This document shows positions 18,056 to 38,374 of a stretch of 48,598 nt of DNA, in pieces. Source of the stretch: a bacterium (GTDB lineage Bacteria; Patescibacteriota; Minisyncoccia; UBA6257; GWB1-50-10); assembly GCA_021814165.1 (NCBI GenBank), contig JAKAIX010000001.1:1-48598 (forward strand), in the 5' to 3' direction. Both the position numbers and the translations under genes were made by a program. The notes under the pieces were generated by a model, which saw only the letters and a list, made by a program, of their open reading frames with translations, searched no databases and was not told the origin of the DNA. Position 1 is the stretch's first letter; the number at the start of each line of letters is the position of its first letter.

Positions 18056-18100
18056 TCAATCTATCGAGGCCCGGCCTCGATAGAAAAGTGGATAACTTTC
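18056..18100. repeat. Dispersed palindrome + DnaA-box-like element, copy 1
   Basis: TCAAT-CTATCGAGGCCCGGCCTCGATAG (18061-18083)-AAAA-GTGGATAACTTT. Confidence 0.85.
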
Positions 18101-31604: not shown

Positions 31605-31687
31605 TAATGAGGCCCGGCCTCAATAAAGTTATCCACAATTTTATCGAAGCCCGGCCTCGATAGATTGAACGGCCTCGATAGATTGAA
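31605..31687. repeat. Dispersed palindrome + DnaA-box element, compound copy 2
   Basis: GAGGCCCGGCCTC, TTATCCACA (31629-31637), TATCGAAGCCCGGCCTCGATAGATTGAA and a tandem half-copy GGCCTCGATAGATTGAA. Confidence 0.85.
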
Positions 31688-31712: not shown

Positions 31713-33383
31713 TTATTTAAGTTTTTCGAAGTAATCCCTGAGTTCCTGCTCTTTCTTCTCAATCTCTGACTGGGTATCGCGCCGGGCGAAGGCATAATCC
31801 TGCATGTCGGCAAGAATGAATTTGCCGAGAAGGGGATATACCTCTCGGATAAGTTTTACTTTCTCCTGTTCGATCTTCCTGTAATCCGGATGCCCTGTGG
31901 GAATGGTGCGGAGTTCGGATTCCCACATAAACGCCCGCATGTTCTGGCGTTGGAGAAAACGCAAGCGATGAGCGAGCGTTACCGCATATTGGGCGAGGTT
32001 TTTATCCTTCGACTCTATTTTGTAAAATACCCCTTCAACTTTCTCGATTGCGGCGCGGAACTTGTTGTCCAACTTCGCTTCGATGAGTTCTTCGGGGACG
32101 TGGTAGCCGTGATGGACGCTGAAACGCTGCCGCATCTGGGTTTGCATGCGATGGCGGTGAATATCCCGCCACGCGCCGATATTCATCGTGATTTCAAAAG
32201 CGACATTTGCCATCTCGAAAGCGCGGGGAATCTTGTACCAGCGGGCCGTGCGTCCTCGTATGGCACGGGCGAGAAGCTGTTCCTTTTCTTCTTCGGAAAG
32301 TTTTACGACCTTTCCGAGTATCTTCTCGAAAGGTTCGTGCGTTTCGGGATAAAGGAGCGCGGCAAGAATTTTATTTTCGCCGTCCTTGTCATACTCCACC
32401 AATTTCACGCCCCATTCTGATTTATCTACGTTCGCGTCAAGCTTAAGTTCTTTCACGACCTCGCGGATGCGCGCTCCGCGTCCGGCGAGATATTCCTGGT
32501 ATTCTTTCGAAGCGTCGCTTTCGAGACGCCGCAGAAAGGCGGGTACAACGCGCGTGAGTTCATGAAATGCCGCATCGGCTGCCCAGCGGATTTCTCCCAG
32601 AGGGTGTTTAAGCGATCGGGAAAGCGCGTATTCGAGCGCCTGGCCGTTTGCGAAGAAAACCACCTGGCTTAATGCCGCGGTGGGAAGAAGTCCGCGAAGC
32701 GTGTCGAATGCCTTTGTTTTTAAAACAAGCTCCTTCTCGTCGGGGTACTTCTTTTTCAAAAACTCGAGGAATTCCTTTCCGAGCAACGCATAGGTATCGA
32801 AAAGATTATCCATTGCCGTACGGTATTCGTCCATAAGGCCCATCTCGGCGAGCGTCGGATCGGCATAGTAGAGATATTTGCCGTTCACTTTTGACGAGTA
32901 ATCAAGGTAGCGGGTGGACTTTTCGAGCGGTGCAATTCCGACGCGCATGTCTTCAAAATGCTTAATGGCGATTTGAGAGATGCCGGAAAAAAGGAGATGC
33001 GTGCCCGCCATCTGAGCAATCGAATCGTCGCCGTACTGTGCGAGCCATTTGATGTAAAATTCGCGCCCCTTGGGATTCGAGAAAATGAGTTCGAGAGGAT
33101 ACTTGTGCAGGAATTCCACGAGCGAACTCAAGGCCTCGCTGTATTCGCTCTTGTCGGCAAGGAAAGGTTTTATAAACTCGTTTAAAAATATCATCCGCAG
33201 ATCCTCTTTGGCGCGGCTCGTTCTGGAGCACAAAGCGCCGATCATCTCGGGCGGCAGAAAGGGCACCACGAACACGGATCGCTCGAGATTAGTGAAGAAC
33301 GGCTCGATTTGGTACTTCTCTTCCGGTGAGAGACTGAGCTCGGGGAAGAGGGGGGCGAACTTTTCGAGATTGTCTTCCGGCAT
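31713..33383 (-). CDS. thyX: FAD-dependent thymidylate synthase, double-length (tandem ThyX-like)
   Basis: 'QYGDDSIAQ', 'LEKSTRYLDY', 'DTLRGLLP', and a second half with 'RDIHRHR'. Start is ATG 33383 or 33392. Confidence 0.8.
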   Translation of the reverse strand: MPEDNLEKFAPLFPELSLSPEEKYQIEPFFTNLERSVFVVPFLPPEMIGALCSRTSRAKEDLRMIFLNEFIKPFLADKSEYSEALSSLVEFLHKYPLELIFSNPKGREFYIKWLAQYGDDSIAQMAGTHLLFSGISQIAIKHFEDMRVGIAPLEKSTRYLDYSSKVNGKYLYYADPTLAEMGLMDEYRTAMDNLFDTYALLGKEFLEFLKKKYPDEKELVLKTKAFDTLRGLLPTAALSQVVFFANGQALEYALSRSLKHPLGEIRWAADAAFHELTRVVPAFLRRLESDASKEYQEYLAGRGARIREVVKELKLDANVDKSEWGVKLVEYDKDGENKILAALLYPETHEPFEKILGKVVKLSEEEKEQLLARAIRGRTARWYKIPRAFEMANVAFEITMNIGAWRDIHRHRMQTQMRQRFSVHHGYHVPEELIEAKLDNKFRAAIEKVEGVFYKIESKDKNLAQYAVTLAHRLRFLQRQNMRAFMWESELRTIPTGHPDYRKIEQEKVKLIREVYPLLGKFILADMQDYAFARRDTQSEIEKKEQELRDYFEKLK

Positions 33384-33480
33384 TGCGTCCATTATACCCC
33401 CCTTCTTAATTCGGGTAATCTTGACTTTTATGTGTTTTTGAGTCATTGTGTTAGCTCAAGAATTGCACATTGTTATAAAA

Positions 33481-33654
33481 CGGGGAGTAGCTCAGCCAGG
33501 TTAGAGTGCCAGATCGTGAAAGATGTAACAATCGTTATTTTGAATAATCTTTTCCTATTTCATTGTGCCAATTGACGAGAATGAGATTGGCGCCCTTGAA
33601 ATCGATTGCCTTTCTGTGGTTTGGAGACCGAAGGTTCGAATCCTTCCTTCCCGA
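33481..33654 (+). tRNA. tRNA gene interrupted by a 99-nt insert in the anticodon loop (identity uncertain: His-like anticodon arm, Pro-like acceptor)
   Basis: Acceptor CGGGGAG/CTTCCCG + A73, D-arm GCTC..GAGT, anticodon stem CCAGA/TTTGG, variable AGACC, T-arm GAAGG-TTCGAAT-CCTTC. There are 106 nt between the anticodon stem strands instead of 7. Confidence 0.75.
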
Positions 33655-33656
33655 CG

Positions 33657-33685
33657 AAACCGTGGTTCTCCCTCGCGGTTTTTTA
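33657..33685 (+). terminator. Intrinsic terminator after the interrupted tRNA
   Basis: AAACCGTG-GTTCTCCCT-CGCGGTTT followed by further T's. Confidence 0.65.
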
Positions 33686-33754
33686 AAAAAAGAGAGCAGT
33701 ACTGATTTTTCTGCTCTCCTTTGTATTTTATGTGGTTTTTGCTATACTTAAGGC

Positions 33755-34309
33755 ATGTCTACAGGAATAATAATTCTTTTAGTAGTAGTCGTTATCGTGT
33801 TGTGGGTGATCGGCGCCTTTAACGGTCTTATCTCCCGCAAGAACAGGGTCGCCGAAGCGTGGTCCGACATTGAGGTGCAGTTAAAGCGCCGGTATGATCT
33901 GATTCCGAACCTGATAGAAACCGTAAAAGGATACGCAACGCACGAGAAGACGATTTTGGAAGATGTGACAAAAGCGCGCACTGCCGCTATGTCCACGGAA
34001 GACCCAAAGGCAAAACTTCAGGCGGAAAACCAGCTTTCGCAGACTCTGAAGTCGCTCTTCGCGGTTGCGGAGAATTATCCTCAACTCAAGGCGAACGAGA
34101 ATTTCGGAAAGTTGCAGGATGAGCTCACGGATACCGAAGATAAGATTCAGGCAGCGCGGCGTTTCTATAATGGCAACGTCCGCGATTACAACACAGCGAT
34201 CGAAGTATTTCCGAGAAACGTTATTGCAAAGATGTTCGGCTTCGGACAGAAAGAGTTGTTCGATGTCGATAACGACATTGAGCGCCAGCCCGTCAAGGTG
34301 AAGTTTTAA
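33755..34309 (+). CDS. lemA: LemA family protein
   Basis: N-terminal TM, 'EAWSDIEVQLKRRYDLIPNL', 'ENYPQLKANENF', 'AARRFYNGNVRDYN'. Confidence 0.95.
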   Translation: MSTGIIILLVVVVIVLWVIGAFNGLISRKNRVAEAWSDIEVQLKRRYDLIPNLIETVKGYATHEKTILEDVTKARTAAMSTEDPKAKLQAENQLSQTLKSLFAVAENYPQLKANENFGKLQDELTDTEDKIQAARRFYNGNVRDYNTAIEVFPRNVIAKMFGFGQKELFDVDNDIERQPVKVKF

Positions 34310-38335: not shown

Positions 38336-38374
38336 CAATCTATCGAGGCCCGGCCTCGATAGACTTGTGGATAA
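38336..38374. repeat. Dispersed palindrome + DnaA box element, copy 3
   Basis: CAAT-CTATCGAGGCCCGGCCTCGATAG (38340-38362)-ACT-TGTGGATAA (38366-38374). Confidence 0.85.

Follow-up and report, generated by a model that had tools for sequence, protein, structure and literature searches.

When a bacterial tRNA gene is interrupted in its anticodon loop, one reading is an intron, and the question raised by the gene at 33481–33654 of the DNA studied here, which comes from a tiny uncultured bacterium of the Parcubacteria (CPR), is whether that reading holds. The whole stretch analysed, 48,598 nt long, will be referred to as the window. The original prediction, made from the letters of the window, pointed out a 99-base insert that fitted no standard intron class, and it put forward three possibilities: an intron that is minimal or assisted in trans, a bacterial tRNA intron spliced by proteins, and a non-coding RNA derived from a tRNA. 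It is the third of these that fits the comparative data. The 99-base "intron" is most likely an insertion tolerated in a tRNA look-alike that does not decode, and not a new kind of intron.

Architecture and detection of the gene

A perfect cloverleaf can be read from the sequence (Table 1), which confirms the claim of canonical tRNA arms: there is a 7-bp acceptor stem, a D arm with G18G19, and a T-loop of the form TTCRA. The 7-nt anticodon loop is replaced by 106 nt, position 33 is C, the acceptor stem begins with C1:G72, and the discriminator is A73, all as previously described. CCA is not encoded at the gene; CGA comes after the discriminator.

Table 1. The tRNA-shaped gene and the features around it (positions in the window)
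Feature	Position	Strand	Sequence or basis
Candidate promoter	33421..33449	+	TTGACT, 17 nt, CATTGT; read from sequence, inference only
5' half of tRNA-shaped RNA	33481..33513	+	ARAGORN with introns allowed, constrained fold, covariation in six homologues
Acceptor stem, 7 bp, one G-U pair	33481-87 / 33647-53	+	CGGGGAG / CTTCCCG; sequence
D arm with G18G19, after U8 A9	33490-33507	+	GCTC-AGCCAGGTTA-GAGT
Anticodon stem, 5' strand, after G26	33509-13	+	CCAGA
Insert replacing the loop, 106 nt	33514..33619	+	Folds
3' half of tRNA-shaped RNA	33620..33654	+	Sequence, ARAGORN with introns allowed, constrained fold, covariation
Anticodon stem, 3' strand (5-bp stem with CCAGA)	33620-24	+	TTTGG
Variable region, 5 nt	between anticodon-stem 3' strand and T arm	+	AGACC
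T arm	33630-46	+	GAAGG-TTCGAAT-CCTTC
Discriminator A73	33654	+	
Terminator-like hairpin, 9-nt loop, then T6	33659..33684	+	ACCGTG/CGCGGT; read from sequence
Second hairpin, between A-run and T-rich stretch	33692..33718	.	GAGAGCAG/CTGCTCTC; read from sequence
lemA with its own promoter	33740..34309	+	Pfam LemA, 4.8e-64

Default ARAGORN and Rfam at its gathering score both miss the gene, reporting only tRNA-Leu(CAA) and tRNA-Ser(GGA) in the window. When introns are allowed, ARAGORN places a tRNA at exactly the ends 33481 and 33654, names it Gln(CTG), and gives it a 97-nt "intron" and a shifted anticodon stem. Three further contigs of the same species, obtained from other samples, are identical at the locus base for base; the locus is therefore no assembly artefact. 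The metatranscriptome contigs of the same study (three runs) do not cover this organism, and none lies on the locus or its neighbours; in DNA, the mine-drainage samples X1-X4 contain the organism at a depth of about 16x. A search of the source metagenome for an insert-free paralogue returned only the end of a foreign contig matching the 5' half, and an exact scan of species-representative genomes with a 22-mer from the T arm and acceptor stem gave only a chance match in an archaeal coding region.

The candidate promoter upstream of the gene, a poor one that is absent from the list of the consensus scanner, could possibly yield a leader of some 25 nt, which RNase P would cut off. The arrangement of TTGAC(A/T) followed by 17 nt is also found upstream of the homologous genes in L004, L093, L095, L101, and L104. 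As for the terminator proposed downstream, the hairpin and T-run are visible by eye, and the strict consensus scanner does not list them because the loop is 9 nt long. The second hairpin sits between the RNA gene and the lemA promoter, at a spot marked by a spurious mir-46 match.

Homologues beside lemA

Homologues were sought by synteny with LemA as the anchor, and all of those found lie upstream of lemA and in its orientation (loci are designated by L numbers, and the percentages in brackets are LemA identities). The same cloverleaf is present in L092 (96%), where the acceptor strands are CGGGAAG and CTTCCCG, the discriminator is T, and 129 nt lie between the strands of the anticodon stem, and in L012 and L096 (94%), where the loop measures 148 nt. 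The L092 orthologue scores 41.1 bits on the Rfam tRNA model RF00005, for which the gathering score is 29, with 128 nt skipped. Shorter versions also exist. These include a 75-nt version in L101–103 (80%), in which the 6-nt loop reads CTGTAA, C56 has become A, and an A is bulged out of the acceptor stem; a 73-nt version in L104 (79%), with the 6-nt loop CTTTTT; and an 89-nt version in L038 (65%), whose 23-nt loop contains a 5-bp hairpin. In L038, a genuine tRNA-Val lies between the tRNA-like gene and lemA. The anticodon loops of the six sequences are thus 6, 6, 23, 106, 129, and 148 nt long, and they have no conserved sequence.

The gene is absent from L001–3 (97%), L100 (81%), and L009/10 (80%), and in L007 (80%) a related tRNA-like gene is split by an element of the IS3 family; GCA_021791135.1 is one genome without the gene. 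The gene is thus dispensable enough for repeated loss. In L004–6 and L093–95 (88%) one finds a more derived tRNA-like gene of 121–162 nt, in which the acceptor and T arm are present, the D arm is reduced, and the middle is branched.

Several other tRNA-like elements at these loci should be recorded. Just upstream of the gene with the 6-nt loop, L101:1272-1321 holds a mini copy that lacks the T arm; its terminal stem is 8 bp long, and it has a D arm together with an anticodon arm whose loop is likewise CTGTAA. The tRNA-like halves in L007 lie at 1583-1660 and 2696-2791, with the acceptor GCAGACA/TGTCTGC followed by A-CGA; the element that splits them carries rve and HTH_Tnp_1 genes, and a structured region of about 150 nt follows before lemA. 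The more derived genes form a second family at the same site (L004:2785-2905, L093:1738-1892, and L095:1013-1174), to which Rfam gives no match. Its acceptor stem covaries (A-U or G-C at 1-72; C-G, U-A, or U-G at 7-66), its T-loop is canonical, its D-loop is the 4-nt UGGU, and its branched middle spans 60–100 nt. The family is preceded by a TTGACA-17-nt promoter and a conserved leader, YTGGAATCCRG.

The public gene call at L092:1908-2147 (-) is an ORF of 79 aa which spans the tRNA-like gene on the opposite strand. It is almost certainly a spurious call that arose because the RNA is unannotated.

Tests of the intron readings

Ribozyme, bulge-helix-bulge (BHB), excision, and comparative tests all failed to support either of the intron readings, the minimal or trans-assisted one and the protein-spliced one. 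The original prediction could see no group I core, and Rfam is in agreement: it gives no match to a group I intron, small ribozyme, tmRNA, or Y-RNA-like family in 33380-33760 (E<=10), and none to a group I or other ribozyme at the L012 and L092 loci (E<=5). Nor had a strict BHB been seen, and our own scan for this motif stays at the level of chance, with 1–3 hits per sequence as against 2.5–3.2 in shuffles and none at the anticodon-stem junction.

For the excision test, every way of leaving a 7-nt loop was enumerated, both in the standard register and in a register shifted by one pair. In the standard register U33 never appears: every excision leaves C33 in the case of the window, and the orthologues give A33 or G33. 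The possible anticodons after excision are those for His, Thr, or Asn in the window, Ser, Trp, or Arg in L012, and Ser, Arg, or Pro in L092, and there is no isotype common to the three under any excision in either register. The NGG anticodon that would be expected of a tRNA-Pro body is available in no homologue. The discriminator is not fixed, being A, A, U, A, U, and U across the six homologues, and in homologues that lack an insert the loop is not normal either, being 6 nt long. From a canonical tRNA one might expect U33 and a purine 37 within an anticodon loop of 7 nt, and the same anticodon and discriminator across orthologues; we find neither in this set.

Group I introns are known in bacterial tRNA genes, namely those for tRNA-Leu(UAA), tRNA-fMet, tRNA-Ile, and tRNA-Arg in cyanobacteria and proteobacteria. 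The resemblance to these is that a bacterial tRNA gene is interrupted at its anticodon loop. Group I introns, however, are about 200 nt or more in length and possess a P3–P9 core and a terminal G, whereas the inserts here measure 99–143 nt across the insert-bearing orthologues, have no conserved core, and find no match in Rfam. With the BHB introns of archaea and eukaryotes (EndA plus RtcB) the gene shares a self-pairing insert at the anticodon loop, but there is no 3-nt bulge, 4-bp helix, and 3-nt bulge involving the anticodon stem, and the 3' side of the insert forms a continuous helix into that stem. In the literature searched, we came across neither an account of a gene of this sort nor one of tRNA introns other than group I in CPR bacteria.

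Probable tRNA-Pro ancestry, and covariation

When the insert-free core was compared with a phage collection, 18 of the best 25 matches listed had an annotated feature, and in all of these it was tRNA-Pro. A tRNA-Pro-like body agrees with C1:G72 and A73. By its sequence, the gene body is tRNA-Pro-like and probably descended from a tRNA-Pro gene.

Covariation was assessed on six cores with their loops trimmed (window, L092, L012, L101, L104, and L038); the tRNA-like genes of L004, L093, L095, and L007, which gave no confident alignment, were left out. In the alignment, 96% of the stem cells pair and 12 of the 21 pairs have compensatory double changes, though these are six related sequences, and shared ancestry can inflate the signal. 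The compensated pairs fall in the acceptor stem (6/7), the anticodon stem (4/5), and the T stem (2/5). None of 500 column shuffles matched the observed pairing and compensation, and controls with slid partners reached at most five compensated pairs. The elbow nucleotides U8, A14, G18G19, G53-C61, T54, C56, and A58 are kept in five of the six homologues, the exception being L101, which lacks C56.

Third codon positions differ by 0.39–0.41 among the window, L092, and L012. Despite this divergence, the acceptor, D, and T arms are only about 10% different, and between the window and L092 we counted 12 stem substitutions with not one broken pair. The differences between L012 and L092 include compensated ones at 5-68 (G-C versus A-U) and 29-41 (C-G versus U-A). 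Since these two share an insert and yet differ by compensated pairs, selection on the cloverleaf must have continued after the insertion. Judged on the alignment, the acceptor, D, anticodon, and T stems have been maintained by compensatory change across the relatives, and neither the length nor the sequence of the anticodon loop is under constraint.

This does not make the gene as conserved as a genuine tRNA. The cores of the window and L012 share 72% identity, compared with 96.6% for the genuine tRNA-Ser(GGA), from which it follows that the constraint is weak; for the same pair of genomes, the tRNA-shaped gene evolves about eight times faster than the genuine tRNA.

Structure and possible origin of the insert

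All of the helices listed in the original prediction recur in the minimum-free-energy fold, whether the molecule is folded freely or constrained to the cloverleaf. Present in both folds are 33518-22/33610-14, 33529-34/33603-08, 33557-62/33597-602, and 33565-73/33585-93. Through the insert the anticodon stem continues as a long rod, with 33535-56 as a side region and a 9-bp hairpin at the tip (33565-93). The folding energy of the whole molecule is unexceptional (z = -1.19; 27 of 200 shuffles fold as well).

The insert is AT-rich, having a G+C content of 38%, below that of the tRNA parts (56%) and of the window (49%). It is single-copy within the window, and neither permissive Rfam searches nor ARAGORN with introns allowed found an inner tRNA inside it. 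When it was examined for antisense complementarity to the 48-kb window and the loci, nothing rose above chance, the longest exact match being 12 nt. It is unlike the inserts of L012 and L092 (alignment z = -0.6 and 0.6), while those two are homologous to each other (global alignment z = 4.5, equalled by none of 300 shuffles; 3' ends z = 4.9).

A MITE-like mobile element would be marked by terminal inverted repeats, a target-site duplication, and several copies. The ends of the single-copy insert are imperfectly inverted, GAAAG..CAATCG / CGATTG..CTTTC, and it stands between two copies of the trinucleotide GTG, as the L092 insert does between copies of CGA, although repeats of 3 nt can occur by chance. 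If the insert is removed together with one flanking trinucleotide, a 6-nt loop is left in the window, TC[GTG]...[GTG]G, as well as in L092, TG[CGA]...[CGA]C, and in L012, TA[CGA]...[CAA]C. This is the very state that is directly present in L101 and L104. As a lead only, it suggests that the ancestral gene may already have had a non-canonical 6-nt loop and that the DNA insertions came later.

A proposed tRNA-shaped RNA that does not decode

Our best reading, to which we give about an even chance, is that this is a separate gene derived from tRNA-Pro which has lost decoding, is kept as a tRNA-shaped RNA acting through its top half, and tolerates insertions at its anticodon end. The data fit a molecule in which the top half and the anticodon stem would be needed and the loop would be free in length and sequence. 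The transcript would be cut by RNase P at 33481, trimmed at its 3' end, and then given a CCA end like a tRNA. Its top half, that is, the acceptor/T minihelix and the D/T elbow, would serve as an uncharged tRNA mimic and might bind or titrate some protein that recognizes tRNA. With the anticodon end functionally free, DNA insertions would be tolerated there; examples are the hairpin-rich 99–106 nt in the window and the different insert of 129–148 nt in two relatives. The insert would then be a lineage-specific DNA insertion, probably retained in the mature RNA, whose anticodon arm it would lengthen.

The main rival of a tRNA mimic is a slowly decaying tRNA-Pro paralogue: a redundant copy in which a mutation of the anticodon loop disabled decoding, after which drift, insertions of hairpin-type mobile DNA, and loss in one lineage after another ran their course. 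The original prediction kept a decaying pseudo-tRNA as its fallback, and strong compensatory covariation now weakens that reading, which we hold to be somewhat unlikely. The presence of the gene varies among close relatives and one copy has been hit by an IS, the rate of evolution is some eight times that of a real tRNA, and short direct repeats stand beside the inserts, all of which would suit a relic. The lesions of L101, where A has replaced C56 in the T-loop and an acceptor A is bulged, are typical of decay and count against the best reading, as do the dispensability of the gene, its weak constraint, and its poor promoter. A relic should not, however, retain pairing in nearly all stem cells, with more than half of its pairs compensated, when silent sites are about 40% different, nor should the window and L092 have accumulated all their stem substitutions without breaking a pair. 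Compensation, moreover, went on after the insertion shared by L012 and L092, and a neutral relic would not be expected to last so long in a streamlined CPR genome.

Another possibility is a functional tRNA that carries a bacterial intron of a new type, removed by undescribed protein machinery or in trans, with ligation of the halves. In its favour, selection acts on the exon stems even of those alleles that contain an insert. The insert lies in the anticodon loop and folds on itself, and RtcB-type ligases do exist in bacteria. Under this view, a protein-dependent intervening sequence would be excised to give a tRNA-Pro-derived molecule with an unusual loop of 6–7 nt, active on the ribosome and perhaps decoding in a non-standard way. 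We consider both the intron and this product very improbable. There is no group I or other ribozyme signal and no BHB motif; no excision restores U33 and a 5-bp stem; the possible anticodons differ among orthologues and none is NGG for the tRNA-Pro body; insert-free homologues have 6-nt loops and the discriminator is variable; and the closest relative does without the gene. A further idea turns the roles around, making the tRNA body a natural scaffold for processing and stability and giving the activity to the insert, which might be an antisense RNA or bind a protein, and evolve fast. A tRNA frame is used to stabilize embedded RNAs in engineered systems, and the inserts are long, structured, and lineage-specific. 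Two homologues nevertheless have no insert at all, only their 6-nt loops, the window insert shows no significant similarity to the other inserts, and its complementarity to the window is that expected by chance. This scaffold is therefore improbable as well, if less so than an intron.

Among known systems, one close parallel to a non-decoding tRNA look-alike is "tRNA-Other", a pseudo-tRNA from Bacillus cereus that serves as a small regulatory RNA resembling a tRNA. On our best reading both are chromosomal, tRNA-derived, tRNA-shaped, and dispensable, and neither is a normal decoder; tRNA-Other, however, has an anticodon loop of normal size and is weakly aminoacylatable, whereas the loops here range from 6 to 148 nt. 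Conservation of the acceptor, T arm, and D-loop top half with replacement of the anticodon arm is also seen in tmRNA and in the YrlA Y RNA modules. The gene was considered as a member of each and rejected. ARAGORN finds no tmRNA, the 3-70 pair is G-C and not G3:U70, and there is no tag reading frame; Rfam gives no match to YrlA, and YrlA RNA ends in a Ro-binding stem, not in an acceptor stem like that of the gene here.

If the best reading is true, there are Parcubacteria that maintain an RNA resembling a tRNA for its shape alone, and the short list of tRNA mimics (tmRNA, Y RNAs, and pseudo-tRNAs) would gain a bacterial chromosomal addition. It would also mean that more than 100 nt of foreign DNA can be accommodated at the anticodon end of a tRNA-like molecule with the fold intact. 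We recommend that interrupted tRNA genes in CPR genomes be supported by comparative evidence before they are read as containing introns or counted in the tRNA complement.

Surroundings of the locus

The gene order is RelA/SpoT, GroEL, a double-length ThyX (-), the RNA gene, lemA, an M48 peptidase (HtpX-like), and an oxidoreductase of the NQR/RnfD type. The extended -10 element of lemA, TGCTATACT, is at 33740-48, about 7 nt before the ATG at 33755, and lemA appears to be leaderless or nearly so. This element is conserved in the window, L001, L012, and L092. Because it and the ATG are kept in L001, which lacks the RNA gene, the RNA is a separate gene and not the leader of lemA.

The slot between groEL and the tRNA-like gene or lemA holds analogous cassettes for thymidylate synthesis in close relatives (window 31713-33446 (-); L012:323-2073; L004:1194-2730; L101:1-1229). 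A double-length ThyX on the minus strand occupies it in the window, L092, and L001, ThyA plus DHFR on the plus strand in L012, L004, L093, and L009, and ThyX on the plus strand in L100, L101, and L007. As L012 and L092 have the same tRNA-like insert and different cassettes, the swap took place beside a resident RNA gene. The ThyX of the window is 577 aa long, about twice the usual length, with Pfam Thy1 matches in two stretches; that of L001 starts 21 codons later, so the annotated start in the window may be too far upstream.

Finally, a GC-rich palindrome, TCTATCGAGGCCCGGCCTCGATAGA, occurs in four copies in the window, at 18060-18084, 31605-31627, 31642-31664, and 38339-38363, three of which have common flanks of about 40 nt.
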